The notes under the pieces are model-generated. The model was not told where the DNA came from. It made no database searches and was given only the letters and a program-made list of their open reading frames with translations. Shown here in pieces: positions 4,075-29,306 of a stretch of DNA of 64,000 nt. The number at the start of each line of letters is the position of its first letter. The first letter of the stretch is position 1. The position numbers were made by a program, and so were the translations under genes. Location of the stretch: sequence record OZ035789.1. One strand, 5' to 3'. Source of the DNA: Tequatrovirus BCH953P4.

Positions 4075-4130
4075 CGTTTTTCCTTTTTGTTAACAGATGA
4101 ATTAATAATAACAAATAATTCTTAAAGCAT

Positions 4131-5825: not shown

Positions 5826-6361
5826 GTTGATCCCAGCTCCTTACTTTCAACGTTTTTAACTAATTTGACAGAAACTAATTCAGCATCTTGAGTAATCATT
5901 ACCGGGCCTTCTTCATACTCTTCAAGATATTCTAGAGCTTTCTTTTTAGCTTCTTCCTTCGTATCAGTTTGAGCATAGATATAAAACATACAACCAGTAA
6001 TACCTACTACTTTCCATTTAATTTCTTTATCAGTTTTAATTTCAAATTTACTGACAGAATCATCTTTTTGAACTTCTTCGAAAAAATAATATTCTGACAT
6101 ATAAGTAATTGAAAATAATGGGCTATCTTTATAGCATTCACCCATTACATCAACAGCTTTATACCAGTAATCGTCAATTTCACGTTTAATGCTAATAACA
6201 TTTTTCGCGGGATCAATTTTTACTTTAAATGAATTTTCCCCAATAAACTGAGCAATTCGTTTATTAGCCCCGCAAGTTTCATTAAAAATATCTTTATATC
6301 CAGCTTTAAAGCGATAAACCTTATCTTCTTCAAACCATTCGCTCATTTTCAATTTCCTCAT
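5819..6361 (-). CDS. hypothetical protein (180 aa)
   Basis: ORF track; early promoter upstream (~6375-6407). Confidence 0.55.
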   Translation of the reverse strand: MRKLKMSEWFEEDKVYRFKAGYKDIFNETCGANKRIAQFIGENSFKVKIDPAKNVISIKREIDDYWYKAVDVMGECYKDSPLFSITYMSEYYFFEEVQKDDSVSKFEIKTDKEIKWKVVGITGCMFYIYAQTDTKEEAKKKALEYLEEYEEGPVMITQDAELVSVKLVKNVESKELGSTC

Positions 6362-6374
6362 TTGTTTGGTAGAG

Positions 6375-6407
6375 CCATAATATCACAACTCTACTGTAAA
6401 GTAAACT
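6375..6407 (-). promoter_or_regulatory. early promoter
   Basis: GTTTAC, spacer, TATTAT before the 180-aa ORF. Confidence 0.5.
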
Positions 6408-6408
6408 A

Positions 6409-6684
6409 TTAAATCGCTTTGAATTCCGCAGTTTGAGATTCAAAGCGAATGTCGCCTTTGATAACTAACTCAGCATCAAGACCGAATACGACAATGATAT
6501 GCGCGGAACCTGGATACAGCGTAATGGCAACAGAATCCACCTGGTCTGGAAGCAAAGTGTTTAATACATGAGTCACTTGAGCATGGATTCGAAGTTCGGC
6601 TGCGTTATCAAGCTTTTCAAACATATTATTAGCGATAATTTGACTAAACACTACTTCTACGATTTTAGAATAAGTCGGAAACAT
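6409..6684 (-). CDS. hypothetical protein (91 aa)
   Basis: ORF track. Confidence 0.5.
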   Translation of the reverse strand: MFPTYSKIVEVVFSQIIANNMFEKLDNAAELRIHAQVTHVLNTLLPDQVDSVAITLYPGSAHIIVVFGLDAELVIKGDIRFESQTAEFKAI

Positions 6685-6686
6685 AT

Positions 6687-6887
6687 TTACCTCACATAAT
6701 TTTCTTCAAGCCAATCAATAACATCCAAAGCGTTATCAAAAGTTGAACCATCTACTTTGTCTTCTGTTTCATAATCAAGAACATCTAAGCCTACTCTTCC
6801 GTCAACAATAGGCCATAAACAAAATAGATATTTCTTTTCTTTTTCAATTTTATCACAAAGACGATAAATCTTTTCTATGTTATTCAT
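6687..6887 (-). CDS. hypothetical protein (66 aa)
   Basis: ORF track. Confidence 0.5.
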   Translation of the reverse strand: MNNIEKIYRLCDKIEKEKKYLFCLWPIVDGRVGLDVLDYETEDKVDGSTFDNALDVIDWLEENYVR

Positions 6888-7076
6888 AAGTTTTCCATGG
6901 TAAAGGCAGTTTAGTTTTCTTTACTGTTAGTTCAACATCAGGATTCTTTTCTCTCAATTTAAGACATTCCTCCCAAGCTCTGATTTCACTAGTGAATACA
7001 CAAAATTGCCCATTACTAGTACCGACTAAACCACTATTTACAATAATAATAGCCCAAGTTTCATGATGCCACGCCA

Positions 7077-7077
<1 letters not shown>
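6880..7077 (-). CDS. hypothetical protein (65 aa)
   Basis: ORF track; abuts pseT. Confidence 0.5.
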
Positions 7078-8280
<1,203 letters not shown>

Positions 8281-8284
<4 letters not shown>

Positions 8285-8511
8285 TTATTTTTCTCAACCA
8301 ATGATTGAATATAATCATGCAGGTCTTTAGATGCTTTACCCCACTTATTTTGGTATTCATTTTTAAGATTAGCACGTGATTGAGCTAATAAAACATCATT
8401 AGTTGGAGGTAAAGATTCTAATCGTTGAATCTGACGTCCATAAATCATTGCTGCCATCTCTGATTCATAAATCAATCCTTTGAGATGTTCAAATTGATGC
8501 CATGAAATCAT
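8281..8511 (-). CDS. hypothetical protein (76 aa)
   Basis: ORF track. Confidence 0.5.
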
Positions 8512-8807
8512 TTACATTTATCCTCTTTTAACTCTTGACGATAATAACATATCATAGTTTTCTGGTCATGTACATATCGTTTTACATCATTAAGCCAAAT
8601 ACGAAATTCCTGAGAATCTTCAAATGGCATACCGACCCAAGCTTTACCATCGATAACTTTAACTTGCCAAGATAGTTTAGCTTCGTCATATGACTTTATT
8701 TGCACAGGCCAATTAGGATGAACTGTTTCTTTCTTTACTTCTAGAGGCTTTGTCGAACAACCAACTAGAAGACCAATAGATAATATTACTGCTGATAGTT
8801 TAATCAT
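8508..8807 (-). CDS. outer-membrane lipoprotein, o-spanin candidate (T4 pseT.2-like)
   Basis: Signal peptide ending in lipobox LLVGC-S; 99 aa; immediately downstream of a TM/coiled-coil partner. Confidence 0.6.
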   Translation of the reverse strand: MIKLSAVILSIGLLVGCSTKPLEVKKETVHPNWPVQIKSYDEAKLSWQVKVIDGKAWVGMPFEDSQEFRIWLNDVKRYVHDQKTMICYYRQELKEDKCK

Positions 8808-9157
8808 TTAGAAAGGTCCTGGATGTCTTCTGCGAACTTGTTGAAGGAGTTGTTGATTTGTTTTTCAACCAATCCTGGCTTATGAGCCACCACATCCGCC
8901 TTCTTTGCGTCTTTGCGCAGCTTTTCATTTTCACGCTCAATTGCAGCAATTGATTCACGATTTTTATTATTCATTGCATCAATATAATTATATTGATTTT
9001 TTAAATCATTTAATGCTAAGGCGTTTTCATTGGCCGTTTTTGTAATTTCTACAACAGACGTTTCTAATCTTTCAATTTTATTTTTTAAAATTAAAGAAGT
9101 TCCGCCCAATGCAATTACAATTAATAACAAGCCTGCTGTCGTATTACTTACATGCAT
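8804..9157 (-). CDS. inner-membrane coiled-coil protein, i-spanin candidate (T4 pseT.3-like)
   Basis: N-terminal TM helix (GLLLIVIALGGTSLIL) followed by charged heptad-rich region; 117 aa; overlaps lipoprotein gene. Confidence 0.6.
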   Translation of the reverse strand: MHVSNTTAGLLLIVIALGGTSLILKNKIERLETSVVEITKTANENALALNDLKNQYNYIDAMNNKNRESIAAIERENEKLRKDAKKADVVAHKPGLVEKQINNSFNKFAEDIQDLSK

Positions 9158-9651
9158 AAAGTTTTAATAACCTCTATAATATCGTCTTGAGAAAGACCGT
9201 TAATTAAAATATGATGTTCAGCCGGAGATTTAGAAATTTTAAAGCATGCCTCAACATCTTCTGCCATATCCGATGCACTACGATTTGGATTACTAATTCC
9301 AAGACGATGCTTTCCCGTCAAAGGATTAACGATGATATAGCATTTACAGCTATTGATATGAACATTAGGTTGAGTCTGATTAATGAACACTTCGCAATCA
9401 TACTTAGCGAGTTGATTTTCTAAAAAGACTTTCATCTCCTCAACCGCATCAGGAAGCATATCACGGGCTTGCTCAAGACGACGATTTCGATATTCTTTAA
9501 TGGTCGTTTTCCGCTTAACTTGCTTAGCTAAATCTTTCTTAAGATCGGTGATATATCCAACTCGACGATTTCCTTTGAATACAGAAATCCCATCTGTAGT
9601 ATCACCGTATGCTTCAACGACCATTTCAGTAGTAATAAGCTGTAAATCCAT
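9148..9651 (-). CDS. alc: Alc, terminator of host (dC-DNA) transcription
   Basis: 167 aa from second Met; matches T4 Alc in size, sequence and position upstream of rnlA. Confidence 0.8.
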   Translation of the reverse strand: MDLQLITTEMVVEAYGDTTDGISVFKGNRRVGYITDLKKDLAKQVKRKTTIKEYRNRRLEQARDMLPDAVEEMKVFLENQLAKYDCEVFINQTQPNVHINSCKCYIIVNPLTGKHRLGISNPNRSASDMAEDVEACFKISKSPAEHHILINGLSQDDIIEVIKTLCM

Positions 9652-9715
9652 CATAAAGTCCTCATGTTATGTCAGTAAGACTACTGTAACACAACATGAG
9701 GGACTTGTAAACAGC

Positions 9716-11303
<1,588 letters not shown>

Positions 11304-11330
11304 AATAAAATGGGCCTTGCGGCCCACTCC

Positions 11331-12509
11331 TTAAAAATATTTTTTAAAACTCATCATAACTTTATCATCAACATCATTATCAATCTGTGCTACAAGATAA
11401 GATGACAGTTCTACTTCTTGTGGCGCGGATTGAACATTATCAGAATTAAGATATTCACGAATCCAAGGATACGGATGTTTAACCGGAGCATCGGTAATTG
11501 GGCATGGAAGACCACACTGTTTCATACGAGATACAGTTAAGTAATCAATAAAGCTCCACATGCTATTTGTATTTAATCCAGGAACATCGCCGTCTTTAAA
11601 TAAATGAACTGCCCAATCTTTTTCTTGGCGGTTAACTTCCATGAAAATATCAACTGCTTCTTGTTCACACTCTTGAGCAATTTTAACCCATTCATCGCCA
11701 TCAGTACCAGATTGAAGTTGACGAATAATATATTGAGTGCCTTTAAGGTGAAGCTGCTCATCACGTGCAATGAACTTCATAATTTTGGCATTACCTTCCA
11801 TGATTTCCATGTTTTTATGGAAGTTAAAGGTACATGCGAAAGATACATAAAAACGAATAGCTTCCAATGCGTTGATTACATGCAAACAGAGGTAAAGAGA
11901 TTTCATTAGCTCATGCTTCCAATATGTCTCATGCTCAATAGCATCTTCAATAACGTCTTCGTCTGCATTAATTTCTTTTTGGTATTCGATATCAGCTTTA
12001 GCGTTTTCCCAATAACGAGTTTTAATCAGAACATCATCATAATAACGTCCAATGGATTCAGCACGTTTCATAATAGCTTCATCTAATACAATTTCATCAA
12101 ATACCTTCGATGGATCAGTATAAAGATTTCGCATGATATGTGTGTATGAACGGCTGTGAATAGTTTCACTAAAAGTCCACGTAGCAACCCATGTATCAAG
12201 GCTTGGGTCTGAAATTAATGACATAAGTACAGCAGACGGCGCACGACCCTGAATGCTATCCAAAAGTGATTGATATTTCAGATTATTAGTAAAAATATTT
12301 TGCTGATACTGAGGAAGCTTATTAAACTGTGCAGCATCCATCATCAAGTTTACTTCTTCAGGACGCCAAAAAAATGATAAAGATTTCTCAATAAGTTCTT
12401 CAAATACTCTATGTCGTTGAATATCATATCGAGCTAAACCCAATCCAGAACCAAAAAACATCGGCTCAGTCAAAATATTAACAGGGGATGTATTAAAAAC
12501 TGTACTCAT
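11331..12509 (-). CDS. nrdB: ribonucleotide reductase small subunit (uninterrupted)
   Basis: Continuous 392-codon ORF starting MSTVFNT as T4 NrdB; di-iron ligand-containing helices; no intron. Confidence 0.9.
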   Translation of the reverse strand: MSTVFNTSPVNILTEPMFFGSGLGLARYDIQRHRVFEELIEKSLSFFWRPEEVNLMMDAAQFNKLPQYQQNIFTNNLKYQSLLDSIQGRAPSAVLMSLISDPSLDTWVATWTFSETIHSRSYTHIMRNLYTDPSKVFDEIVLDEAIMKRAESIGRYYDDVLIKTRYWENAKADIEYQKEINADEDVIEDAIEHETYWKHELMKSLYLCLHVINALEAIRFYVSFACTFNFHKNMEIMEGNAKIMKFIARDEQLHLKGTQYIIRQLQSGTDGDEWVKIAQECEQEAVDIFMEVNRQEKDWAVHLFKDGDVPGLNTNSMWSFIDYLTVSRMKQCGLPCPITDAPVKHPYPWIREYLNSDNVQSAPQEVELSSYLVAQIDNDVDDKVMMSFKKYF

Positions 12510-13147
12510 TTAGAATCCTTAAATTTACATTTATCATAATGCCATCTTAAAGCATTGCCTTTATTAACTTTCTTGCCACAATGCGGACAAGGCGGATACT
12601 CTGTACCTTGCTTAGTTCTCAAAGAAATCAAATCACGGGTTTCTTTAGTATGAGGAACATCTCTTGTCGGAGAGATTGTACCATACATTGGATTAAGCAC
12701 GCCGACTTTAGCAGCAGCTATATTCTTTTTAGCTTCTTCGGTTTTAGGTTTTCTCATGCGAGCTAAATGCTCTTTGGTAAATTTCCTTCCTTTAAGGGCT
12801 CTACTTATCTTTTCTCTGGTTTCCATAGAAACTTCACGTCCTATAGCAGCTTCAGATAAACGTCGTCTACCTAATTCGTACAGTTGAGAAGAAATTTTAT
12901 ATGAGCGATTTTTACCGGTCAAGCACATTAAACCAAAAGCTTTCTTTAATCCTGGGGTGTCATATATTTTACATAAAAGCCAATGAGCTATAAAATGCTC
13001 TCTACCTGTTAATTCAACTAAATTTTCTTTATCATCAGAACCTCCCATACATCTAGGGATTATATGATGTGTCTCTTTATATTCGGATAAAGGTTCCCGA
13101 GCCTGAGCTCGGGAAATTAGGTCATTATAGATTTTTTGATAATTCAT
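12506..13147 (-). CDS. mobE: free-standing HNH homing endonuclease
   Basis: 213-aa ORF between nrdA and nrdB with HHIIPR..GGSDDKENLVELTGREHFIAH HNH motif and C-terminal zinc-finger-like CPHCGKK. Confidence 0.75.
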   Translation of the reverse strand: MNYQKIYNDLISRAQAREPLSEYKETHHIIPRCMGGSDDKENLVELTGREHFIAHWLLCKIYDTPGLKKAFGLMCLTGKNRSYKISSQLYELGRRRLSEAAIGREVSMETREKISRALKGRKFTKEHLARMRKPKTEEAKKNIAAAKVGVLNPMYGTISPTRDVPHTKETRDLISLRTKQGTEYPPCPHCGKKVNKGNALRWHYDKCKFKDSK

Positions 13148-15411
13148 TACAATTTACACGCTGCACAATCTTCAGCTTTTGGAGTTTCTATTTCATAATC
13201 ATCAGTACCAGAACCATCGCGGGTATTATGATAATAGAAATTTTTTCCGCCAAAATACCAAAAATACAAAAGGTCATCAATCATTATTGACATTGGAACC
13301 TTTCCTTTTGGAAAAATCTGCGGGTCATAGTATGTATTCGCTGAAGCTGATTGACATACCCATTTCAGCATAATAGCTACCTGCGTAAGATAAGGTTTAT
13401 TACCTTTCTTAGCTAATTTCCATGTATAATCATAAAGGTCTATGTTATGCTCAATATTGGGCACGACTTGATTAAAGGAGCCCTCTTTTGATTCTTTAAC
13501 AGAGACTGGTCCACGTGGAGGCTCGATACCGTTTGTACTGTTAGAAACTTGGGAAGATGACTCACATGGCATAAGTGCTGATAATGTGCTATTACGGATG
13601 CCAAAGAGCTTAAGGTCTTCCCGCAGCGACGACCAGTCACAAACGTATTTTGGAGCTGCGATTTGGTCAATCTTTTTATTGTACCAGTCGATAGGTAATT
13701 CGCCTCGAGACCAACGAGTGTCTGAATAATATTCGCAAGGTCCTTTTTCTTTGGCGAGCTTAATGGATGCTTTAATGAGTCCATACTGTAATCTCTCAAA
13801 TAGTTCATGTGTTAAATCGTTAGCATCTTCATAAGAAGCAAAGTTACTTGCCAGCCAAGCTGCATAGTTAGTAACACCTACACCGAGGTTACGACGCTTT
13901 TTAGCTTTTTCTGCTTCAGGAACTGGATATCCTTGGTAATCCAAAAGATTATCAAGAGCACGAACTTGAACTTCTGCCAATTCATTAATTTTATCTTGGT
14001 CTTGCCAGTCAAAATTATCTAGTACGAATGCAGAGAGAGTACACAATCCAATTTCAGCATCAGGACTATTCACATCATTTGTTGGAATAGCAATTTCACA
14101 GCACAAGTTACTCTGACGAATAGGTGCCTTTTCACGAATAAATGGAGTATAGTTATTCGTATTATCAATGAACTGTACATAAATCCTTGCTGTTCCTGAA
14201 CGTTCAGTCATGAGCAATTCAAACAGTTCACGGGCTTTAATACGCTTTTTACGAATATTAGGGTCTTTTTCTGCTGCTTCGTATAATTCACGGAAACGGT
14301 CTTGGTCTTTAAAATAAGAATAATAAAGCTCTCCACCCATTTCATGTGGACTAAACAAAGTAATGTAATCGTTCTTTCCAAAACGTTCCATCATCAAATC
14401 ATTCAGCTGAACACCATAATCCATATGACGAATGCGGTTTTCTTCTACGCCTTTGTTATTTTTCAAAACGAGAAGATTTTCAACTTCCAAATGCCAAATA
14501 GGATAATAAGCAGTAGCAGCGCCGCCACGAATTCCACCCTGTGAGCATGATTTAACTGCAGTCTGAAAATGTTTCCAAAAAGGAATAACACCGGTATGGC
14601 GTACTTCACCCATGCCAATCTTAGAACCTTCAGCACGAATCATACCAACGTTAATACCAATTCCAGCGCGTTTAGAGATATATTCAACAATTGAAGCGGA
14701 AGCCTTATTGATAGACTTCAGCGAATCACCTGCCTCAATAACAACACATGAACTAAACTGTCGAGTCGGAGTACGACAACCAGCCATAATAGGAGTTGGC
14801 AGTGAAATCTGTCGAGTAGATACTGCTTCATAAAAACGGATAACATGTTTTAATCTATCAACAGGTTCATCTTGATGCAGTGCCATTCCAATAGCCATAA
14901 ATGCAAACTGTGGAGTTTCATAAATTTGACCAGTGGTTTTATCTTTAACTAGATATTTTTCTTTTAATTGCATCGCCCCGGAATAAGTAAATTCCATATC
15001 CCGCTCGTGCTTAATTTTTGATTCTAAAAATGTAATTTCTTCTGCTGAATATTTTGACAATAATTCAGGGTCATATTTACCTGCATTTACACAATAAGAA
15101 ATATGGTCAATAAATGAACGTGGTTCATACTGCCCATAAACATGCTTACGAAGAGCGAACATTAAACAACGTGCAGCTACATATTGGTAATCAGGCTCTT
15201 CAACCGAAATAGAATTCGCAGCGGCCTTAATGACAATAGTCTGAATATCATCAGTTGTCATTCCATCACGGAGATAAGATTTAATATTTTCATATAATTC
15301 ATAAGGATCTACTGATGTTCCCTCAGCTGCCCAAGATAAAACTTTAATAATTTTTTGTGGGTCAAAGCTCTGAGAAACACCACTACTTTTGATAACATTA
15401 ATTAATTGCAT
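13147..15411 (-). CDS. nrdA: ribonucleotide reductase large subunit
   Basis: 754-aa ORF, T4 NrdA length; class Ia RNR catalytic cysteines and C-terminal CAACKL tail. Confidence 0.95.
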   Translation of the reverse strand: MQLINVIKSSGVSQSFDPQKIIKVLSWAAEGTSVDPYELYENIKSYLRDGMTTDDIQTIVIKAAANSISVEEPDYQYVAARCLMFALRKHVYGQYEPRSFIDHISYCVNAGKYDPELLSKYSAEEITFLESKIKHERDMEFTYSGAMQLKEKYLVKDKTTGQIYETPQFAFMAIGMALHQDEPVDRLKHVIRFYEAVSTRQISLPTPIMAGCRTPTRQFSSCVVIEAGDSLKSINKASASIVEYISKRAGIGINVGMIRAEGSKIGMGEVRHTGVIPFWKHFQTAVKSCSQGGIRGGAATAYYPIWHLEVENLLVLKNNKGVEENRIRHMDYGVQLNDLMMERFGKNDYITLFSPHEMGGELYYSYFKDQDRFRELYEAAEKDPNIRKKRIKARELFELLMTERSGTARIYVQFIDNTNNYTPFIREKAPIRQSNLCCEIAIPTNDVNSPDAEIGLCTLSAFVLDNFDWQDQDKINELAEVQVRALDNLLDYQGYPVPEAEKAKKRRNLGVGVTNYAAWLASNFASYEDANDLTHELFERLQYGLIKASIKLAKEKGPCEYYSDTRWSRGELPIDWYNKKIDQIAAPKYVCDWSSLREDLKLFGIRNSTLSALMPCESSSQVSNSTNGIEPPRGPVSVKESKEGSFNQVVPNIEHNIDLYDYTWKLAKKGNKPYLTQVAIMLKWVCQSASANTYYDPQIFPKGKVPMSIMIDDLLYFWYFGGKNFYYHNTRDGSGTDDYEIETPKAEDCAACKL

Positions 15412-15728
15412 AAGTCCTCAACTTGAAAATCGTCTTTAAACAATCGGTTAACTATATGAGCTATTATATCACCATGACACGGCTTTGGTTTACATGTGCA
15501 TCCTAGCCTCATTCCACGTAAAGGCTCTAAATGTGCTTTAGTTATTTCTCCGGATTTAATTCGACGTATAAAATCTTTTTTGAATAATTCAATGGCAGCC
15601 TCCCGGCTGCCAGCATCTTTACCGACGTAATTTCCCCAAAATGTACCGCGGTGAATATTAACATCAAAGTCGGATTTATATTTATTCACTACTCGGCATA
15701 GACGGCCCACGCTGGAATAATTCGTCAT
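15402..15728 (-). CDS. hypothetical protein (108 aa)
   Basis: ORF track; position of T4 nrdA.1. Confidence 0.5.
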
Positions 15729-15945
15729 ATTGTTTTTCCGTTAATACAGTAATATCATAGTAACAATCGGAAGAAGTTTTAACTGTGGAAATTTTATTAT
15801 CAAAATACTCACGAGTCATTTTATGAGTATAATATTTTTTACCATAAATGATAATAGGCTGTTCTGGTCCTGGAACTTCTAACTCGCTTGGGTTAGGAAG
15901 TGTAAAAAGAACAACGCCAGAAGTATCTTTAAATCGTAAAATCAT
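15682..15945 (-). CDS. hypothetical protein (87 aa)
   Basis: ORF track; ATGA overlap with td exon 2 stop. Confidence 0.5.
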
Positions 15946-17818
15946 ATTGCCATTTTCCCTTTAATTGCTGGATGCGATTCATAATTTTCAAGGATAAAAT
16001 CTTTCGGTTTCATGTATTCAGTTAACCAGTAAAGCTGTGTTTCGGTGTCACAATTTCCAAACTCTATAGGCCAATCAATTTTAAGTTCACATAGTTCTTT
16101 AGGCTCACGACGTAAAATTTCTTTACATTGCTCAGTATGATTCATATAGATGTGAGTATTACCGCCAGAAAATATCAAATCTCCCGGAATAAGATTACAC
16201 ATCTTAGCTACAATATGAACTAACGCAGCGTATGATGCAATATTGAACGGTAGCATTATGTTCAGATAAGGTCGTTAATCTTACCCCGGAATTATATCCA
16301 GCTGCATGTCACCATGCAGATCAGACTATATCTCCAACTTGTTAAAGCAAGTTGTCTATCGTTTCGAGTCACTTGACCCTACTCCCCAAAGGGATAGTCG
16401 TTAGGCATTTATGTAGAACCAATTCCATTTATCAGATTTTACACGATAAGTAACTAATCCAGACGAAATTTTAAAATGTCTAGCTGCATCTGCTGCACAA
16501 TCAAAAATAACCCCATCACATGAAATCTTTTTAATATTACTAGGCTTTTTACCTTTCATCTTTTCTGATATTTTAGATTTAGTTATGTCTGAATGCTTAT
16601 GATTAAAGAATGAATTATTTTCACCTGAACGATTTCTGCATTTACTACAAGTATAAGCAGAAGTTTGTATGCGAACACCGCACTTACAAAACTTATGGGT
16701 TTCTGGATTCCAACGCCCGTTTTTACTTCCGGGTTTACTGTAAAGAGCTTTCCGACCATCAGGTCCAAGTTTAAGCATCTTAGCTTTAACAGTTTCAGAA
16801 CGTTTCTTAATAATTTCTTCTTTTAATGGATGCGTAGAACATGTATCACCAAACGTTGCATCAGCAATATTGTATCCATTAATTTTAGAATTAAGCTCTT
16901 TAATCCAAAAATTTTCTCGTTCAATAATCAAATCTTTCTCATATGGAATTTCTTCCAAAATAGAACATTCAAACACATTACCATGTTTGTTAAAAGACCT
17001 CTGAAGTTTTATAGAAGAATGGCATCCTTTTTCTAAATCTTTAAAATGCCTCTTCCATCTCTTTTCAAAATCTTTAGCACTTCCTACATATACTTTATTG
17101 TTTAAAGTATTTTTAATCTGATAAATTCCGCTTTTCATAAATACCTCTTTAAATATAGAAGTATTTATTAAAGGGCAGTCCTACAATTTAGCACGGGATT
17201 GTCTACTAGAGAGGTTCCCCGTTTAGATAGATTACAAGTATAAGTCACCTTATACTCAGGCCTCAATTAACCCAAGAAAACATCTACTGATCGTTGATAC
17301 CATTGTAAATCAAGATAACCATTACGCACATTAAATTGATAGAACATATGACAAGGTGGTAATGCCATCTGCTTGAGTTCAGCTGGATTCCATGCTGAAA
17401 CAATTTGACGCCTATCATTTGGCAGTTTTTTAATGCGATCAATAACTTCTATAATTTGGTCTACACCGCCAAAATCACGCCATTGTTTTCCATAAATTGG
17501 ACCAAGTTCACCACTATGGTATCCTAAATCTTTTGCTTGATTTTCGTAATTTTCATCCCAGACTGTTTTGCCTTGGATTAACGAATCATGCTGAATTAAT
17601 CGTAAATCATTGACATTTGTGCTTCCTGATAAAAACCATATTAACTCAGAAATGCAAGCTTTCCAGGCGAGCTTTTTAGTTGTTACTGCAGGAAAACCTT
17701 TGGTTAAATCCCAACGCAATTTAGTACCGAACAAAGCAATTGTTCCTGTGCCTGTTCGGTCATCAGTTTCATAACCATTTTCAAAAATGTCTTTAATTAA
17801 ATCTTGGTATTGTTTCAT
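15942..17818 (-). CDS. td: thymidylate synthase, split by a group I intron (exon 1 17270..17818, exon 2 15942..16253)
   Basis: Exon 1 ORF of 183 codons ends ..TTGGGT then in-frame TAA; intron begins TAATTGAGGCCTGAGTATAAGGTGACTTATAC and ends ..AACATAATG before CTACCG; 183+103 codons = 286 aa. Confidence 0.9.
16254..17269 (-). mobile_element. td group I self-splicing intron (1016 nt) carrying the I-TevI ORF
   Basis: Canonical td intron 5' and 3' boundary sequences read directly; length 1016 nt using ORF-track coordinates. Confidence 0.85.
16401..17138 (-). CDS. I-TevI: I-TevI GIY-YIG intron homing endonuclease
   Basis: 245-aa ORF inside the td intron; N-terminal GIYQIKN..VYVGSA GIY-YIG motif; Zn finger CKCG..CSKC. 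Confidence 0.9.
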   Translation of the reverse strand: MKSGIYQIKNTLNNKVYVGSAKDFEKRWKRHFKDLEKGCHSSIKLQRSFNKHGNVFECSILEEIPYEKDLIIERENFWIKELNSKINGYNIADATFGDTCSTHPLKEEIIKKRSETVKAKMLKLGPDGRKALYSKPGSKNGRWNPETHKFCKCGVRIQTSAYTCSKCRNRSGENNSFFNHKHSDITKSKISEKMKGKKPSNIKKISCDGVIFDCAADAARHFKISSGLVTYRVKSDKWNWFYINA

Positions 17819-17859
17819 TTAGTACCTTATATAAATTATAATACATTTTATGAAGCTAA

Positions 17860-18219
17860 TTAATATGGTTTAGCAACAAATTTTCTCTCAATTTCAGGTG
17901 TGAAATATAATTCTTTACCGCGTTTGGAAAAACGACCAATAATATGATAATTATTCTCATCAAACGTGATATTACCAATATCCATAGCTTTCAACCAAAT
18001 ATCGATATTTCTATCCAGCTTTATGTCAAAATTCCAATACGGAGAACTATTACCGAAAATACTGCAAGCGGATTCAGTGAAACAACTGCTATAAATCTTG
18101 TCTTTAGGAACTATTAATTGATAGACACCTTTAATAAACTGAGGACCCTGCCACTTTGGCTGTTTCGCGTCTTTTTCTAATAAAATAGGGTAATAATTAA
18201 AATTCATATTTTCCGCCAC
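17860..18219 (-). CDS. hypothetical protein (115-119 aa) lying between frd and td
   Basis: ORF track (GTG start at 18219; ATG at ~18207); no recognisable motif; AT-rich. Confidence 0.55.
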   Translation of the reverse strand: MAENMNFNYYPILLEKDAKQPKWQGPQFIKGVYQLIVPKDKIYSSCFTESACSIFGNSSPYWNFDIKLDRNIDIWLKAMDIGNITFDENNYHIIGRFSKRGKELYFTPEIERKFVAKPY

Positions 18220-18227
18220 GCGTTATT

Positions 18228-19054
<827 letters not shown>

Positions 19055-19064
19055 ATTATTTTCC

Positions 19065-19307
19065 TTAAACAGACTTTTTCACAATTTTCCAATCAGCTTT
19101 AAACTGCTCGACGTCAGAATGGTAAATCCAGAATCCTGCGCTTTCTCCGTCTTCATAAAGAGGACATCCATCACATTCATCTTCCCACCCCATATCACGT
19201 AAAAGGTGTTCAGCTTTTTCAACAAGCTCAGAATCTTTACCGATGATATTAAAATACCATTTACCTCTAACTTCTGAATCTTTAATGCTCTGACGTTGTA
19301 ATCTCAT
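19065..19307 (-). CDS. hypothetical protein (~80 aa)
   Basis: Internal start MRLQRQS.. preceded by SD GAGGAG and an early promoter; track ORF extends upstream through the promoter. Confidence 0.5.
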   Translation of the reverse strand: MRLQRQSIKDSEVRGKWYFNIIGKDSELVEKAEHLLRDMGWEDECDGCPLYEDGESAGFWIYHSDVEQFKADWKIVKKSV

Positions 19308-19334
19308 TTTATTCTCCTCATGTAGTTGATAGGG

Positions 19335-19367
19335 TAATAGTATCACACTACTACCCTGTTGTAAACA
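19335..19367 (-). promoter_or_regulatory. early promoter
   Basis: GTTTAC, spacer, GATACTATTA, conserved leader CCCTATCAACTAC, SD GAGGAG. Confidence 0.55.
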
Positions 19368-19374
19368 ATTATTT

Positions 19375-19629
19375 TTAAATTTTATCGAGCCACTTACCAA
19401 GCTTAATCATTTCTTTAGTAGCCTTTTCCATACTTCTGAACTTAACCAATAGAGGATAGGTATCGACACCCATAACTAAACTGGTTACAAGACTGTGTTC
19501 ACCCACAAGCCATAACGAATACGTTTGAATATCGAGCCCGTAATTTCTGTCTTTGTGGACCCGTACACCCATCACTTCAAATTTCTCACTAGCTTTTTCT
19601 ACCGCATCCAGGAAATCATCTTTAGTCAT
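19375..19629 (-). CDS. hypothetical protein (~84 aa)
   Basis: ORF track with start trimmed to internal Met (MTKDDF..) to avoid overlap. Confidence 0.45.
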   Translation of the reverse strand: MTKDDFLDAVEKASEKFEVMGVRVHKDRNYGLDIQTYSLWLVGEHSLVTSLVMGVDTYPLLVKFRSMEKATKEMIKLGKWLDKI

Positions 19630-19630
19630 A

Positions 19631-19996
19631 TTAGGCCTTAAAAGTTTTTCGCAAAAGTTCAATGATTTCATCTACATTATTTTCGTCAACAATGCAGTGA
19701 ATTTTTGTTACGCCAGAAACCGTGTCTTTGACTTCATCCTCTTCAGAAGTCGGTTCTTTATACTCGCGAAAACAATGAAATTCGTCTTCACAAACGTTAA
19801 AGTAAAAATGCTTTCCATTTGCGCATTCAATGTGTTTTATTACTCTAAATCCATCAACAAAGAAAGCTTCTTTAACTTCAAACCATCCACCATTTTCTTG
19901 AATAATTTTAACTATTGATGAATTAGAACGTGGGCGATAATTAATAAATGTATCAATAAGTCTTGGAACAAGCTCATACTTTTTGCCAATATACAT
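19631..19996 (-). CDS. hypothetical protein (121 aa)
   Basis: ORF track. Confidence 0.55.
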   Translation of the reverse strand: MYIGKKYELVPRLIDTFINYRPRSNSSIVKIIQENGGWFEVKEAFFVDGFRVIKHIECANGKHFYFNVCEDEFHCFREYKEPTSEEDEVKDTVSGVTKIHCIVDENNVDEIIELLRKTFKA

Positions 19997-20040
19997 TACG
20001 TTTTCCTCATTTTAACGGGGCTGTAATAGCCCCTTGATAA

Positions 20041-20268
20041 TTATTGTTCAATCAGTCCCATGTAAAATTCTGCGTCTTCAGAATCCATACCATCACAATA
20101 TTCATTAGCCATAAAGCGGGTAAGGTCTTCAAGAGGACCTTCAATAACGATTTGAATACTCCAAAACTTAGAATCTTGTACGCTTGTGATACTAAGTTCA
20201 GGATAACGATTACGAATAATCTCTTCAATATATTCAAAATCAACGATGTCAATATCAACTTTAGCCAT
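20041..20268 (-). CDS. hypothetical acidic protein (~75 aa)
   Basis: Internal start MAKVDIDIV.. with SD AAGAGGAAA; track ORF extends upstream through the promoter. Confidence 0.5.
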
Positions 20269-20308
20269 ATTATTTTCCTCTTTAATCATCAGCAGTATTG
20301 CCGATAGT

Positions 20309-20342
20309 TGTATAGTACCATGGAAGGACAAGGATGTAAACT
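20309..20342 (-). promoter_or_regulatory. early promoter immediately downstream of the gene 32 terminator
   Basis: GTTTAC, spacer, GTACTATAC. Confidence 0.55.
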
Positions 20343-20349
20343 GTTTTGT

Positions 20350-20392
20350 GAAAAAAATTTTTGAAATAAAAAAGGGGACCTCTAGGGTCCCC
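20350..20392 (-). terminator. rho-independent terminator downstream of gene 32
   Basis: On minus strand GGGGACC-ctag-AGGTCCCC hairpin followed by TTTTTTATTTC. Confidence 0.65.
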
Positions 20393-20414
20393 AATTAATT
20401 AGTAATATAATCTA

Positions 20415-21320
20415 TTAAAGGTCATTCAAAAGGTCATCCAGGTCCGTGTCATCAGCACTAGATGAACTGCCAGAGCTTGAGCTCATAAAATCATCTTCAG
20501 TTTTTGTATTGAAGTCATCAACATTGAATGCATCCAAATCATCAGCAACTTTATCAGCTTTCTTAGCAGCAGTCGCTGCGGCACCGCCCATCACAGCAGT
20601 TCCCATAACTTGACCGAATTTAGTATTCAGTTCTTCAAACGATTTGAATTTATCTTTAGAAGTCATTTCAGAAAGGTCAACCATTTGTTCGAACAGTTCT
20701 TTCTGGAAAGATTCATCATCAATGTTTGGAATCGCAGATTGATTCAGGAATTTAGATTCGTCGTAGTTACTAAAACCAGAAACTTGTTTAACTTTCAGTA
20801 CAAAGTTAGCACCTTCCCACGGACAAGTTACATCAACCGGAGTTTCACCCATTTCAACATCAACCGCAATCATCGCGTTGATTTTATCCCAGATTTTCTT
20901 ACCGAAACGATATTTAAATACTTTACCTTCATTTTCTGGAGCAGCTGGGTCTTTTACAACAAGAATATTAGCCCAGTAAGAAGTTTTACGTTTAACAAGA
21001 CTGTACTCTTTATTGTCAGTGTTGTACAGATCATTTTTACTGATGTACTGACATACTGGACAAGAATCGTAATCACCATGGGTAGATGAACATGTTTCAA
21101 TATACCATTTACCATTTTTCTTGAAACCGTGATTTACAAGAATTGCGAATGGTGCTTGTTCATCATTTTTAGACGGAAGAAAACGAATTACTGCTTGACC
21201 GTTACCCGCATTATCGAGTTTCAGTTTCCACTCGCCTTTATCTTCAGAAGAAAAACCTTTATTGCCATTCAGTTTAGCCATTTGTGCAGCAAGTTCAGCA
21301 GTAGATTTACGTTTAAACAT
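20415..21320 (-). CDS. 32: gp32 single-stranded DNA-binding protein
   Basis: 301-aa ORF matching T4 gp32 ([17 protein letters not shown]..; Zn site C..C..C; acidic Ser/Asp-rich C-terminus). Confidence 0.95.
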
Positions 21321-21388
21321 TTTATTTCCTTTTTAATTTAATTTAATTTAATTAACAGTTGGTGCTATGACACTTTACCTCATAGCTG
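21321..21388 (-). promoter_or_regulatory. gene 32 translational operator (pseudoknot plus AU-rich UUAAA repeats)
   Basis: mRNA reads ..GCUAUGAGGUAAAGUGUCAUAGCACCAACUGUUAAUUAAAUUAAAUUAAAUUAAAAAGGAAAUAAAAUG, the classical gp32 autoregulatory leader. Confidence 0.7.
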
Positions 21389-22012
21389 GCATAATTCGCA
21401 ATACTCTGGGTCTTCGAGAGGTATCCAACCTGAGTTGAAATACTTTACCATCGATTTAGCAGTTGTATCAGTTATATTTATATTACCTTTAACTCTTCGC
21501 CATCCAGGAGTTTTACCGTACAGATTAGAGGATAATAATAACACATAATTCTCGTAAGCAATATGAGATAATTTCCAAGACTCTATATTAGCTCGTGATG
21601 TTTTCCAAGGTCTAAAATCGTCACGGTTCATATAATTAGCCAATCTCATATGCTCTCTAACTTCCGGGTCTTTGGCTGGATGAGTTTCACCACTCACACC
21701 AAATCCACCACCAGCATATACCAGATTAAAATAGTCTGGATTATCTCTGGCATTTACTTCAAGTTGGTATTTTCGTTCTGCTTCAATAACATCCAAGTCA
21801 TCATCAATTTGAATTATTTTAACGCTCGGTTTTTGAAGCATTAGCGCATTCAAAAATCTTTTTTGTTTACATGAGCTCCAGTATTCCTTTCCGGAAGAGT
21901 CATATATTATTCCGTTCTCAAATGAGCAATTTAATTTACTACCGATATAATAGTATGGCGGAGTCTTATTTTTGACACGGTCTTCAAATGTAAACCAATA
22001 TACTATATTCAT
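21380..22012 (-). CDS. segG: GIY-YIG free-standing homing endonuclease (SegG-like) between genes 59 and 32
   Basis: 210-aa ORF; N-terminal VYWFTF..(x)..YYYIGSK GIY-YIG-type motif; position matches T4 segG. Confidence 0.6.
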   Translation of the reverse strand: MNIVYWFTFEDRVKNKTPPYYYIGSKLNCSFENGIIYDSSGKEYWSSCKQKRFLNALMLQKPSVKIIQIDDDLDVIEAERKYQLEVNARDNPDYFNLVYAGGGFGVSGETHPAKDPEVREHMRLANYMNRDDFRPWKTSRANIESWKLSHIAYENYVLLLSSNLYGKTPGWRRVKGNINITDTTAKSMVKYFNSGWIPLEDPEYCELCQL

Positions 22013-22013
22013 A

Positions 22014-22667
22014 TCAATACTTGCAAGATTTCACAGTTTCAATGAAAACATTTTTAGCTTTCTGTGAATCAATATTTAAAATTTTTCTATAAGCCTTTAA
22101 CTTTATAGAATAATTATTCCAGACTAAATTATCAGTCTGTTCATCGTGTTTATCAATTATATTTAAAAACGAATCAAGCAAGATAAACGTTTCAAACGAA
22201 ATTATATTCGACTGAAGCAGTTTAAAAATATAACTTGATTGAACCTTTGGATTATATTCAAAGATTTCTTTAAAAGCAGAAACTTCAACTTTTTTACTAA
22301 AATAATAAATGTTGCGAATATCTTCTTCAAACTTAAATTTAATTTGCTTTAAGCGTCCGATATATTCACGATAAAACACAAGTGCATCAGCGTCAGAGAT
22401 GTCACCAATCCAAGCATCTTGGTTAGCAACCAGATTGCTTATAAAGATTAAAGCAAGTTCCTTTAATTTATATTTTTCTGATAACTTCTGGAAAAAATAC
22501 TTATCCCTTCGCTTTTGATAAGCGGCATCAGACACCCGCATGCACCAATTATACTTAATAACATCATACTTTCCATTCATATGTTGTTTTATCATTAAGT
22601 ATAATTTATAAACTGATTTACCATCAATGTATCTTTCACCACCAGCAGGCATGCGGAGTTTAATCAT
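22014..22667 (-). CDS. 59: gp59 helicase loader
   Basis: 217-aa ORF matching T4 gp59 in length and sequence. Confidence 0.9.
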   Translation of the reverse strand: MIKLRMPAGGERYIDGKSVYKLYLMIKQHMNGKYDVIKYNWCMRVSDAAYQKRRDKYFFQKLSEKYKLKELALIFISNLVANQDAWIGDISDADALVFYREYIGRLKQIKFKFEEDIRNIYYFSKKVEVSAFKEIFEYNPKVQSSYIFKLLQSNIISFETFILLDSFLNIIDKHDEQTDNLVWNNYSIKLKAYRKILNIDSQKAKNVFIETVKSCKY

Positions 22668-23002
22668 AGTAGAAAATCTAATGTATTAGTTTTTTCACAA
22701 CGAACAACAGAAGGACGTAAAAGATTTTCGTCGATAGCTTCTGACTGAATTTTTTCAATTATACCCGAAGGAATAAATTTAGCAAATTGAGTTTCAGGAA
22801 TAGAGTTTTCTTCCAAGAATGCTGTCGTAGCTTCAAGATAACTCATTCCAAACTCTTCTACCATTTTTTCAATAATAAATCCATTTTCTTGACGATCAAG
22901 AAGCTTTGCTATTTCATCCTTTTCTTTCTTAATTGAAAGTTCTTTTTCTGAAAGACCGGTCTCATCGACCGGACGAATATCATTTAGAGAAAACTGTGTC
23001 AT
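22664..23002 (-). CDS. 33: gp33 late-transcription co-activator
   Basis: 112 aa from MTQFSLNDIRPVDETG; ATGA coupling with gene 59. Confidence 0.85.
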   Translation of the reverse strand: MTQFSLNDIRPVDETGLSEKELSIKKEKDEIAKLLDRQENGFIIEKMVEEFGMSYLEATTAFLEENSIPETQFAKFIPSGIIEKIQSEAIDENLLRPSVVRCEKTNTLDFLL

Positions 23003-23249
23003 AAAGTTCAACTACCTCTTCAGTTTCAGCTTCAAACACATCACGGTTATCTTTATGATACAAAGCTAATAGACGATTAAACATCTTACCATCAACGCCA
23101 AGTTCATCTTTGGCACGAATTCGAATATCTTTAATCAATTCATTATAACCAGAAATTTTCAGTTTATGATCAGATGCTTCTTTAATAAATTTAGCCAAAT
23201 CTTCGCCGTGGATAGCTTCATCAAATTCAACCATTTCTTTTTTAGCCAT
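22980..23249 (-). CDS. dsbA: DsbA double-stranded DNA-binding protein
   Basis: 89-aa ORF of T4 DsbA length between rnh and 33. Confidence 0.8.
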   Translation of the reverse strand: MAKKEMVEFDEAIHGEDLAKFIKEASDHKLKISGYNELIKDIRIRAKDELGVDGKMFNRLLALYHKDNRDVFEAETEEVVELYDTVFSK

Positions 23250-23257
23250 TATTCACC

Positions 23258-24175
23258 TCAAAATTCATTAATGCTATTAGTTAATTTAGAAAGACCCGCT
23301 TTTACAAAATATGAATAAATTTTGCCACGCGGTGGTAATTTATATGAATTATAGTAATTCACAATGTTTGAAGCAATATTATCAGGAATATAATCAAAAT
23401 CAATTAGAACTAAATTTTCTTTATAACGATTATATTCAGATTCTGTGAGAAGCACCTTAGCTTGCTCACGGTCATTAGCAATAGCTTCAACGATTGAAGT
23501 TTTCATTGAAGGAGTTCGTTCACCTTCAACTCTGGTAAACCAAAAGTCAGATCGTACTTTAACTGAAGCAACGTTATCCTTTTTGTCGCCTTTAAGGATT
23601 TTAGTCATACAGTCAATTTCAGCAGAACCGCTTTTAATTTTAACCCATTTCTTGTGCATCGGTGACCATTGCTTAACATTTGGGTATTTGTGAAGTTGAG
23701 TAAAGTCACCATCCGATGAAATGATTAAAATCTTATGTCCTTCTAAAGAGAACTTTTTAACAAGAACAGCAATATGGTCATCTGCTTCATACTTATCAAT
23801 ATCCATAACGATGTATGGCATATAAGCTTTCAATTCATCTATAACTTTATGACTGGATTCAAAATAACCTTCCCAGTCCCAAGTCGATTCTTCTCGTGCT
23901 TTTCCACGGTTTTTCTTATAATAATAAGCGAAATCACGACGCCAGTATCCAGATTTCGCGTTATCAATACACAGTACAATTTTAGTGTATCCAAGCGTTT
24001 TTGCTTTTTTGACATTAAACTTAATTGAGTTCAATATCAAATGACGAACCATTGATAAATTAATTTTTTCTTTATCTGGGAAGTTTACTAAAGCAGTTGA
24101 AAGCGCAATTTGACTAAAGTCAATAAAGCAAATTCCTTCTTTGTAATCTTCATCCAGCATCATTTCTAAATCCAT
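23258..24175 (-). CDS. rnh: RNase H (5'-3' exonuclease, FEN family)
   Basis: 305 aa from MDLEMMLDEDYKEG..; SD GAGG precedes this ATG; T4 RNase H length. Confidence 0.9.
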   Translation of the reverse strand: MDLEMMLDEDYKEGICFIDFSQIALSTALVNFPDKEKINLSMVRHLILNSIKFNVKKAKTLGYTKIVLCIDNAKSGYWRRDFAYYYKKNRGKAREESTWDWEGYFESSHKVIDELKAYMPYIVMDIDKYEADDHIAVLVKKFSLEGHKILIISSDGDFTQLHKYPNVKQWSPMHKKWVKIKSGSAEIDCMTKILKGDKKDNVASVKVRSDFWFTRVEGERTPSMKTSIVEAIANDREQAKVLLTESEYNRYKENLVLIDFDYIPDNIASNIVNYYNSYKLPPRGKIYSYFVKAGLSKLTNSINEF

Positions 24176-24202
24176 ATGAACCTCGTTCAATTAGTGAGAT
24201 TT

Positions 24203-24235
24203 CTATTATATACCATCCAAATCTTAAAGTAAACA
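24203..24235 (-). promoter_or_regulatory. early promoter for rnh
   Basis: Minus strand GTTTAC -35, ~17-nt spacer, TATATAAT -10. Confidence 0.55.
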
Positions 24236-24237
24236 AG

Positions 24238-24245
24238 TATAAATA
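24238..24245 (+). promoter_or_regulatory. late promoter (TATAAATA) for gene 34
   Basis: Exact TATAAATA ~35 nt upstream of gene 34 ATG. Confidence 0.65.
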
Positions 24246-24279
24246 CTTATTATTGAAAACACAATAGGAGCCCGGGAGA

Positions 24280-27200
24280 ATGGCCGAGATTAAAAGAAAG
24301 TTCAGAGCAGAAGATGGTCTGGACGCAGGTGGTGATAAAATAATCAACGTAGCTTTAGCTGATCGTACCGTAGGAACTGACGGTGTTAACGTTGATTACT
24401 TAATTCAAGAAAACACAGTTCAACAATATGATCCAACTCGTGGATATTTAAAAGATTTTGTAATCATTTATGATAACCGCTTTTGGGCTGCTATAAATGA
24501 TATTCCAAAACCAGCAGGAGCTTTTAATAGCGGACGCTGGAGAGCATTACGTACCGATGCTAACTGGATTACGGTTTCATCTGGTTCATATCAATTAAAA
24601 TCCGGTGAAGCAATTTCGGTTAATACTGCAGCTGGAAATGACATCACGTTTACTTTACCATCTTCTCCAATTGACGGTGATACTATCGTTCTCCAAGACA
24701 TTGGAGGAAAACCTGGAGTTAATCAAGTTTTAATTGTAGCTCCAGTGCAAAGTATTGTAAACTTCAGAGGTGAACAGGTACGTTCAGTACTAATGACTCA
24801 TCCAAAGTCACAGTTAGTTTTAATTTTTAGTAATCGTCTGTGGCAAATGTATGTAGCTGATTATAGTAGAGAAGCTGTAGTTGTAACACCAGCGAATACT
24901 TATCAAGCGCAATCTAATGATTTTATCGTGCGTAGATTTACTTCTGCTGCACCGATAAATATTAAACTTCCAAGATTTGCTAATCATGGCGATATTATTA
25001 ATTTCGTCGATTTGGATAAATTAAATCCGCTTTATCATACAATTGTTACTACATACGATGAAACGACTTCAGTACAAGAAGTTGGAACTCATTCCATTGA
25101 AGGCCGTACATCAATTGACGGTTTCTTGATGTTTGATGATAATGAGAAATTGTGGAGATTGTTTGACGGGGATAGTAAAGCACGTTTACGTATCATAACA
25201 ACTAATTCAAACATTCGTCCAAATGAAGAAGTTATGGTATTTGGTGCGAATAATGGAACAACTCAGACAATTGAGCTTAAGCTTCCAACTAATATTTCTG
25301 TTGGTGATACTGTTAAAATTTCCATGAATTACATGAGAAAAGGACAAACAGTTAAAATCAAAGCTGCTGATGAAGATAAAATTGCTTCTTCAGTTCAATT
25401 GCTGCAATTCCCAAAACGCTCAGAATATCCGCCTGAAGCTGAGTGGGTTACAGTCCAAGAATTAGTTTTTAATGGTGAAACTAATTATGTTCCAGTTTTA
25501 GAGCTTGCTTATATAGAAGATTCTGATGGAAAATACTGGGTTGTACAGCAAAACGTTCCAACCGTAGAAAGAGTAGATTCTTTAAATGATTCTACTAGAG
25601 CAAGATTAGGCGTAATTGCTTTAGCTACACAAGCTCAAGCTAATGTCGATTTAGAAAATTCTCCACAAAAAGAATTAGCAATTACTCCAGAAACGTTAGC
25701 TAATCGCACTGCTACTGAAACTCGCAGAGGTATTGCAAGAATAGCAACTACTGCTCAAGTGAATCAGAACACCACATTCTCTTTTGCAGATGACCTTATC
25801 ATTACTCCTAAAAAGCTGAATGAAAGAACTGCTACAGAAACTCGTAGAGGTGTCGCAGAAATTGCTACGCAGCAAGAAACTAATACAGGTACTGATGATA
25901 CTACAATCATTACTCCTAAAAAGCTTCAAGCTCGTCAAGGTTCTGAATCATTATCTGGTATTGTAACTTTTGTATCTACTGCAGGTGCTACTCCAGCTTC
26001 TAGCCGTGAATTAAATGGTACGAATGTTTATAATAAAAACACTAATAATTTAGTTGTTTCACCTAAAGCTTTGGATCAGTATAAAGCTACGCCTACTCAA
26101 CAGGGTGCAGTAATTTTAGCAGTTGAAAGTGAAGTAATTGCTGGACAAAGTCAGCAAGGATGGGCAAATGCTGTTGTAACGCCAGAAACGTTACATAAAA
26201 AGACATCAACTGATGGAAGAATTGGTTTAATTGAAATTGCTACGCAAAGTGAAGTTAATACAGGAACTGATTATACTCGTGCAGTCACTCCTAAAACTTT
26301 AAATGACCGTAGAGCAACTGAAAGTTTAAGTGGTATAGCTGAAATTGCTACACAAGTTGAATTCGACGCAGGCGTCGACGATACTCGTATCTCTACACCA
26401 TTAAAAATTAAAACCAGATTTAATAGTACTGATCGTACTTCTGTTGTTGCTCTATCTGGATTAGTTGAATCAGGAACTCTCTGGGACCATTATACCCTTA
26501 ATATTCTTGAAGCAAATGAGACACAGCGTGGTACACTTCGTGTGGCTACACAAGTTGAAGCTGCTGCAGGAAAATTAGATAATGTTTTAATAACTCCTAA
26601 AAAGCTTTTAGGTACTAAATCTACCGAATCGCAAGAGGGTGTTATTAAAGTTGCAACTCAGTCTGAAGCTGTGGCTGGAACGTCAGCAAATACTGCTATA
26701 TCTCCAAAAAATTTAAAATGGATTGTGCAGAGTGAACCTTCTTGGAGAGCAACTACTGCGATAAGAGGTTTTGTTAAAACTTCATCTGGTTCAATTACAT
26801 TCGTTGGTAATGATACCGTCGGTTCTACCCAAGATTTAGAACTTTATGAGAAAAATAATTATGCAGTATCACCATATGAATTAAACCGTGTATTAGCAAA
26901 TTATTTGCCATTAAAAGCAAAAGCTGCTGATACAAATTTATTGGATGGTCTAGATTCATCTCAGTTCATTCGTAGGGATATTGCACAGACGGTTAATGGT
27001 TCACTAACCTTAACCCAACAAACGAATCTGAGTGCCCCTCTTGTATCATCTAGTACTGCTACGTTTGGTGGTTCAGTTTCGGTAAATACATTAACTATTT
27101 CTAAAACTGGAACAGCAGCTCGTCTGATTTTTGAGAAAGGACCTCAAACTGAAACTAACCCAGCGCAGACGATGACTATCAAAGTTTGGGGAAACCAGTT

Positions 27201-28149: not shown

Positions 28150-28157
28150 GAGGTATT

Positions 28158-29273: not shown

Positions 29274-29275
29274 AT

Positions 29276-29304: not shown

Positions 29305-29306
29305 TT

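Follow-up and report, generated by a model that had tools for sequence, protein, structure and literature searches.

Homing-endonuclease elements at six loci of Tequatrovirus BCH953P4: a partial T-even set in a T4-like genome

The analyzed window and its relationship to T4

A stretch of 64,000 nucleotides (nt) of Tequatrovirus BCH953P4 (sequence record OZ035789.1; hereafter, the window) was analyzed for its homing-endonuclease elements at six loci: the group I intron of td with its endonuclease I-TevI, mobE between nrdA and nrdB, segG between genes 32 and 59, the intron of nrdB, segF between soc and gene 56, and the mobA/gene 60 cassette of gene 39. The first three elements are present in the window and the last three are absent, and all of the genes concerned (td, mobE, nrdB, segG, 39, soc and 56) lie on the minus strand. 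An interpretation made earlier from the nucleotides alone (the sequence-only reading) had described the phage as a close relative of T4 with a different set of homing endonucleases, and both descriptions were borne out, the second of them at all six loci and at the coordinates given below.

The comparison with the T4 reference (NC_000866) was made in two pieces by BLASTN. Gene order ran straight from T4 127.5 kb through the end of the genome to 22.3 kb (window 1..40500 corresponding to T4 127.5-166.9 kb, and window 42738..64000 to T4 1-22.3 kb), with a mean identity of 95.7% over the ~55 kb that aligned. A focus region of ~10.7 kb (the 10682-base query) gave matches in over 1000 phage records, of which the best over its full length were Tequatrovirus genomes at ~96%; none was identical. 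The ~540 records that were at least 90% identical to this region are termed T4-like here and formed the baseline for the phage collection. Presence or absence, domain content and levels of identity are taken from the comparisons made in this study, and statements on enzymatic activities and homing draw on published work on the same genes.

Homing-endonuclease elements present in the window

The td gene is split by a group I intron of 1016 nt (16254..17269), which alignment with T4 places between exon 1 (17270..17818, 549 nt) and exon 2 (15942..16253, 312 nt), with the same splice junctions as in T4. When the exons were joined (549 + 312 nt) they encoded a thymidylate synthase of 286 amino acids (aa), identical to T4 Td at 253/286 positions. 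Within the intron is the open reading frame (ORF) of the GIY-YIG homing endonuclease I-TevI (16401..17138, 245 aa), which has zero nucleotide differences from that of T4 and whose product matched the Pfam families PF01541 (GIY-YIG; 2e-18), PF22635 (zinc finger; 1e-20) and PF20987 (DNA-binding; 3e-32). The spliced frame, the identity of I-TevI and these domain matches all agree with the sequence-only reading, which had proposed a td intron with an intact 245-codon I-TevI at this position. Overall, the intron is 99.9% identical to that of T4, with one substitution and the deletion of 1 nt setting the two apart, and RB3, RB5-10, T6 and PST carry an allele 100% identical to that of the window. From its identity with the characterized T4 element we infer that the intron is self-splicing and that its I-TevI would cut intronless td alleles, into which the intron would then be copied by double-strand-break repair.

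The td exons are less conserved than the intron, exon 1 being 94.2% and exon 2 77.9% identical to T4. The 3' half of exon 2 (15942..16100) encodes a hypervariable C-terminal patch of thymidylate synthase that is ~75% identical to T4 and for which three alleles were found, one in the window, one in phage vB_EcoM_G2540 and one shared by T4 and T2; the intron beside this variable patch is identical across phages.

Between nrdA and nrdB is an ORF of 642 bp (12506..13147) that overlaps the nrdA stop by 1 nt and the nrdB start by 4 nt, exactly as T4 mobE/nrdB.1 do. Its product of 213 aa has an N-terminal HNH domain, NUMOD3 repeats and a C-terminal CxxC region, and gave profile matches to PF01844 (HNH; 3e-5), PF07460 (NUMOD3; 7e-9) and phrog_655 ("homing endonuclease"; 8e-67). 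These matches and the T4-like overlaps substantiate the earlier placement of an HNH endonuclease at the mobE position. The gene is a full-length allele of the T6 type, with 99.2% nt identity to the gene annotated as mobE in T6. Its relationship to the corresponding T4 genes is one of a whole to its parts: the N-terminal 55 aa are 98% identical to T4 MobE, the C-terminal 83 aa are 99% identical to T4 "NrdB.1", and in a three-frame translation of the T4 interval 139716..140416 the NUMOD3-like repeats run on through two frame changes. As judged by these alignments, the MobE of 213 aa, which both the window and T6 carry intact, corresponds in T4 to two separate pieces with a diverged center between them: its start is found in "mobE" (141 aa) and its end in "nrdB.1" (83 aa). 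The window accordingly encodes the full-length, two-module MobE, an HNH domain with a DNA-binding tail, of which T4 mobE is a broken version. The sequence-only reading did not notice that the mobE of T4 itself is a broken form of the ORF it had described. The record thus shows the 213-aa MobE to be the intact form and the "mobE" and "nrdB.1" of the T4 reference to be fragments. A simple scan of 12300..13300 found no intrinsic terminator hairpin in the 5' part of mobE; the published T4 terminator is weak and has a short U tract, so the rule used in the scan may miss it.

MobE nicks the nrdB gene of T2 at codon 42 (AAG), and the nrdB intron is carried along in T4 x T2 crosses (PMC2790892). In phages that contain mobE, codon 42 is AAG, AAA, CGG or CGA and falls within a polymorphic block at nt 114-131 (PMC2790892). 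The target region of the window fits this published description of mobE-containing phages: codon 42 of nrdB is AAA (12384..12386), and the block at nt 114-131 is unlike that of either T2 or T4. By the mechanism established for T4, the MobE of the window would nick nrdB near codon 42 in phages that lack mobE. With mobE present and nrdB intronless, the window has the same nrd genotype as the mobE+ I-TevIII- recombinants obtained from T4 x T2 (Wilson & Edgell 2009, PMC2790892). Those recombinants were made in the laboratory and carry the T4 allele of mobE, whereas the window is a natural case of a genotype previously produced in laboratory crosses and carries the T6-type allele.

The third element, segG (21380..22012), is located between gene 32 (20415..21320) and gene 59 (22014..22667). 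It is 99.8% identical to T4 segG at the nt level, and its 210-aa product is identical to T4 SegG at 210/210 positions, which confirms the earlier assignment of this ORF to the segG position. SegG matched phrog_7504 (1e-133) and, weakly, phrog_314 (1e-7). As a free-standing GIY-YIG gene, segG would be expected to direct the cutting of gene 32 in phages that do not carry it.

Sites that are empty in the window

The nrdB gene (11331..12509) is a single continuous ORF of 392 codons, as previously described. The 598-nt nrdB intron of T4 is absent: the gap in the T4 alignment falls exactly at the exon junction (...TTCGCAT followed by GTACC...), and the empty intron site lies between 11834 and 11833. 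Identity to T4 is 90.5% for nrdB and 97.3% for nrdA, and 2 of the ~60 positions around the intron insertion site differ from T2. A variable patch of NrdB (aa 162-200; 11900..12030) is situated ~70-160 nt upstream of the empty site. The form of this patch in the window is common to T2, which likewise has a 392-aa NrdB, and T4 has another form (388 aa) that seems to travel with the intron. The intron-encoded I-TevIII of T4 is annotated in the T4 record as defective and internally deleted, and an active form occurs in RB3; judging from the site sequence, an active I-TevIII of the RB3 type might cleave the intron site of the window's nrdB.

In the second case, soc (57347..57592) and gene 56 (57661..58179), which encodes a dCTPase and is the target gene of SegF, are separated by a spacer of only 68 bp (57593..57660). 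The segF gene of T4 (224 codons, overlapping the end of gene 56) is absent, a 660-bp segment of T4 (T4T 15596-16256) having no counterpart in the window; the sequence-only reading, which gave ~70 bp and no ORF of the size of segF, was thus accurate. T2 carries a pair of small ORFs between soc and gene 56, neither of which occurs in the window, so that this locus has at least three states. Gene 56 itself is a mosaic, with a T4-like 5' end and a T2-like 3' end, and a conserved block, upstream of the segF site by ~210 nt, shares the reading CCTTGG with T2 and is closer to T2 than to T4.

Lastly, gene 39 (45195..47015), encoding the large subunit of topoisomerase II, is an unsplit ORF of 606 codons that is colinear with T4 gp39 + gp60, with the sequence "...IMTDADHDGLGSIYPS..." read straight through the junction. 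The bypass cassette of T4, in which mobA lies between genes 39 and 60 and is accompanied by a 50-nt coding gap, is absent, and T4T 2806-3900 (1.1 kb) is replaced in the window by 52 bp of continuous coding sequence. The claim of a single gene 39 with neither mobA nor the gene 60 bypass therefore stands. The homologue of the MobA target and insertion region lies at ~45530..45605, and the nick-site homologue differs from T2 by 2 synonymous changes in ~100 nt. The region of T2 nicked by MobA is within the stretch that is replaced by the insert, and on insertion of MobA 55-75 nt of the topoisomerase gene are lost and a diverged copy takes their place (bioRxiv 10.1101/2022.08.31.505936). The reference T4 sequence has mobA as a pseudogene, and intact copies occur in T4T and other stocks.

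Related phages and the distribution of the elements

The deposited genome of vB_EcoM_G2540 (MK327936) has the same state as the window at all six loci and was colinear with it over both stretches that were compared. It has the td intron with I-TevI, segG, a mobE whose product is identical at 210/213 aa, an intronless nrdB whose 392-aa product is identical at 391/392 positions, a soc-56 spacer of 68 bp and an unsplit gene 39, and it shares with the window the ORF between td and frd and the 186-aa ORF beside dam that are described below. The two phages are nonetheless distinct, with only ~96% nt identity, a different allele of the 3' half of td exon 2, and an extra ORF of 371 bp beside gene 39.1 in G2540. 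The six-locus combination of the window is, then, already known from a genome in GenBank.

Among the classical T-even phages, T4 resembles the window in having the td intron with I-TevI, segG and a gene at the mobE position. It differs in carrying the nrdB intron with the defective I-TevIII, segF and the mobA/gene 60 bypass cassette, in having mobE split into 141 + 83 aa, and in its lack of both the td-frd ORF and the dam-adjacent ORF. The sequence-only reading had stated that T4 carries the nrdB intron, segF and a 39/60 split, and the reference does have all three, the split being arranged as 39/mobA/60. T6 (AY262134 / MH550421) shares mobE (99.2%) and the td intron (100% identical) with the window; its match covers only 1-10013 of the 10682-base query and ends before segG, which suggests that T6 lacks segG at the 32-59 position. 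T2 (AP018813), which lacks all six elements, is like the window in its intronless 392-aa NrdB with the same variable patch, its unsplit gene 39, the absence of segF, and the presence of the td-frd and dam-adjacent ORFs. It is unlike the window in having no td intron, mobE or segG and in the two small ORFs between soc and 56.

Across the collection, 195 of the ~540 T4-like records have the td intron and 140 have segG; mobE gave a match of some kind in 141 records and is of the T6 type in 48. The nrdB intron was found in 118 records, many of which belong to other genera, segF in 50, and the mobA/gene 60 cassette in 41/498 records that matched its flanks. Each of the three elements missing from the window is consequently a minority element, and the empty states are the commoner ones among T4-like genomes. 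The elements themselves are highly uniform, with identities of at least 99% for 192/195 full-length matches to the td intron and for 115/140 matches to segG, and this high identity across the collection points to recent horizontal spread. Within the window, the elements in common with T4 (the td intron, the I-TevI ORF and segG) are 99.8-100% identical to their T4 counterparts in a backbone of ~96%. That the elements are far closer to T4 than is the backbone is as expected of elements that spread independently with short co-conversion tracts.

We conclude that the window belongs to a Tequatrovirus ~96% identical to T4 that carries an ordinary, partial set of T-even homing endonucleases, a reading to which we give a probability of about 0.92. 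Each element would spread independently between co-infecting phages through gene conversion triggered by its endonuclease, and it is because of such independent spread that related phages carry different combinations. The weight of this finding is small, as both the variability of the elements and the exact combination were previously on record. It has been documented since the 1970s-2000s that T-even phages differ in their homing-endonuclease genes, that marker exclusion occurs and that T4 is an outlier. T4, with 15 homing-endonuclease genes, is the extreme case and an outlier among the T-even phages in this respect, as the literature already says. The framing of the window as a notable "mosaic" in the sequence-only reading was for these reasons misleading, given that the absences are the commoner states and the full six-locus pattern is already found in G2540. 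What the record does illustrate is the occurrence of elements that are 99.8-100% identical inside a backbone of 96%.

Several observations weigh against this reading. The td intron matched the Rfam model RF00028 with 42.5 bits (E 3.4e-9) in a permissive search, which is below the gathering score of 50, and at the gathering threshold Rfam gave no match in the whole window. The low score is due to the 738-nt ORF that interrupts the fold of the intron, and the identification of the intron is therefore based on the T4 alignment; ORF-bearing group I introns escape default Rfam scans, and the td intron is an example. Similarly, the Pfam GIY-YIG model gave no match to SegG at E<=0.01, a result that holds equally for the identical T4 SegG, and the assignment of SegG to the GIY-YIG family comes from the T4 annotation and the weak phrog_314 match. 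In addition, the state of each empty site, seen here in one genome, may be ancestral or may have been restored by conversion from an empty allele.

Origin of the empty sites and their exposure to T4 endonucleases

Three alternatives were weighed against the conclusion that the window carries an ordinary partial set. The sequence-only reading had itself named the condition under which it would fail, namely that the window is simply T4 and that the gene content of T4 had been misstated. Apart from the gene order common to both, the alignment with T4 ran against this, in that the T4 reference does have the nrdB intron, segF and the 39/mobA/60 split, identity is only 95.7% with many other insertions and deletions, and no record in the collection exceeds ~96% over the full 10.7-kb region; we regard the chance that the window is T4 as negligible. 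An improbable explanation, though one with some basis, is that a T4-like ancestor possessed all six and that three of them have since been lost. Both the precise loss of an intron and the deletion of a free-standing endonuclease gene are recognized in principle, and decay is seen in the reference sequence of T4 itself, with its defective I-TevIII, broken mobE and mobA pseudogene. However, the unsplit gene 39 of the window is near-identical to that of T2, and as insertion of MobA removes and replaces 55-75 nt of the gene, simple excision could not have yielded it. At its 3' end gene 56 resembles T2 and does not have the T4 form that overlaps segF, nrdB has the T2-type variable patch next to the intron site, and the empty states are the majority in the collection. 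On these sequence grounds, decay of a T4-like set is disfavored relative to sites in nrdB, between soc and 56, and in gene 39 that either would never have been invaded or would have been converted back from an empty allele.

The sequence-only reading went further and proposed that the empty sites are potential targets of the corresponding T4 enzymes, so that co-infection with T4 would lead to the cutting and conversion of all three. We consider this extension, taken for all three sites together, to be rather doubtful, since the evidence differs between the sites. Crosses of T4 with T2 show exclusion of the T2 markers at these sites (PMC2988022), and the window resembles T2 in the MobA target region of gene 39 (2/~100 nt different) and in the block of gene 56 upstream of the segF site. 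As such, susceptibility of gene 39 to MobA is plausible, and gene 56 may serve as a T2-type substrate for SegF, although less clearly than gene 39 for MobA. A qualification for gene 39 is that reference T4 has mobA as a pseudogene, even if T4T and other stocks carry an intact copy. The nrdB site is the one for which the proposal did not hold up: T4 I-TevIII is defective, and transfer of the T4 intron needs nicking of nrdB by MobE, whereas the window has its own mobE and a target region of the mobE-plus type. Because of this intact mobE, the AAA at codon 42 and a block at nt 114-131 unlike that of T2, action of T4 MobE on the nrdB of the window is unlikely.

An ORF coupled to dam

Just upstream of dam (58240..59019) is an unannotated ORF of 186 aa on the minus strand (59019..59579), the stop of which overlaps the dam start. 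Its product has a PD-(D/E)XK restriction-endonuclease-like fold, and it is not a classical homing-endonuclease gene. The ORF was present in 145 records, in nearly all of those listed as a "hypothetical protein" (or misnamed). T4 keeps only its last 88 nt, frameshifted, and has therefore lost the ORF by a 541-bp deletion. The product gave weak matches to REase_II of PADLOC (9e-5) and to DpnII of Pfam (0.0045; 16.8 bits, under the cut-off of 23), and in an alignment of the family D72 and E85-I-K87 were invariant, which corresponds to the conserved D...(D/E)XK arrangement of the PD-(D/E)XK fold. The family is tiny, with 11 clusters among 1.84 billion representatives in an exhaustive profile search, and that search gave no link to a named enzyme family; sequence searches of the PDB, with the single sequence and with the profile, returned nothing real, and a literature search found no description of the ORF.

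DpnII is a GATC-cutting enzyme whose methylase resembles Dam. The pairing is retained in distant T4-like phages: the genes for two distant homologues of the 186-aa protein (P0011 and P0014) lie just upstream of, and overlap, genes for methyltransferases of the D12/Dam class, and one of the two pairs has a different location in its genome, next to rIIA/rIIB-like genes. As linkage to a methyltransferase is found both in the window and in the distant homologues, the nuclease-methylase pair behaves as a cassette. We tentatively raise the idea, which we think more likely to be wrong than right, that the "orphan" Dam of T-even phages is half of a two-gene cassette with this ORF, which, if active, would be either a GATC restriction-modification-like module or a new free-standing PD-(D/E)XK homing endonuclease that drags dam along. 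The ORF may encode an active GATC-directed nuclease or a new kind of homing endonuclease, or may be an inactive relic. Should the idea be correct, a GATC module might, for example, act against unmethylated DNA of co-infecting phages. The dam-coupled ORF with the nuclease-like fold is the only item in the window with discovery potential, and it bears on the origin of the T-even Dam methylase.

Other differences from T4

All insertions in the window relative to T4 were listed and scanned for domains, and the equivalent of T4 166.9-168.9 kb was checked by an ORF listing. None of the insertions had an HNH or GIY-YIG domain, and the presence of additional, unnoticed seg or mob genes in the window was rejected on this basis. 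Three of the ORFs absent from T4, all on the minus strand, belong to PHROG families of unknown function and had no nuclease domain in the domain scans: one of 180 aa between cd.2 and cd.3 (5819..6361), one of 100 aa between pseT and pseT.1 (7982..8284), and one of 86 aa between dexA.2 and dda (51164..51424). The ORF between td and frd (17860..18219, minus strand; 119 aa), which is present in T2 and G2540 and not in T4, belongs to phrog_1928 of unknown function and occupies a position at which the td and frd genes of T4 overlap. At the position of T4 61.2, an ORF of 118 aa (61073..61429, minus strand) matches only the C-terminal half of the Pfam family AdfA (anti-DarT factor A), the T4 gene being longer. 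Finally, little or no nt match to T4 was found over 30241..32927, which takes in the distal part of the tail fiber gene 37 and the stretch immediately upstream of the gene 38 region, and the divergence of distal gene 37 implies a different receptor-binding tip.

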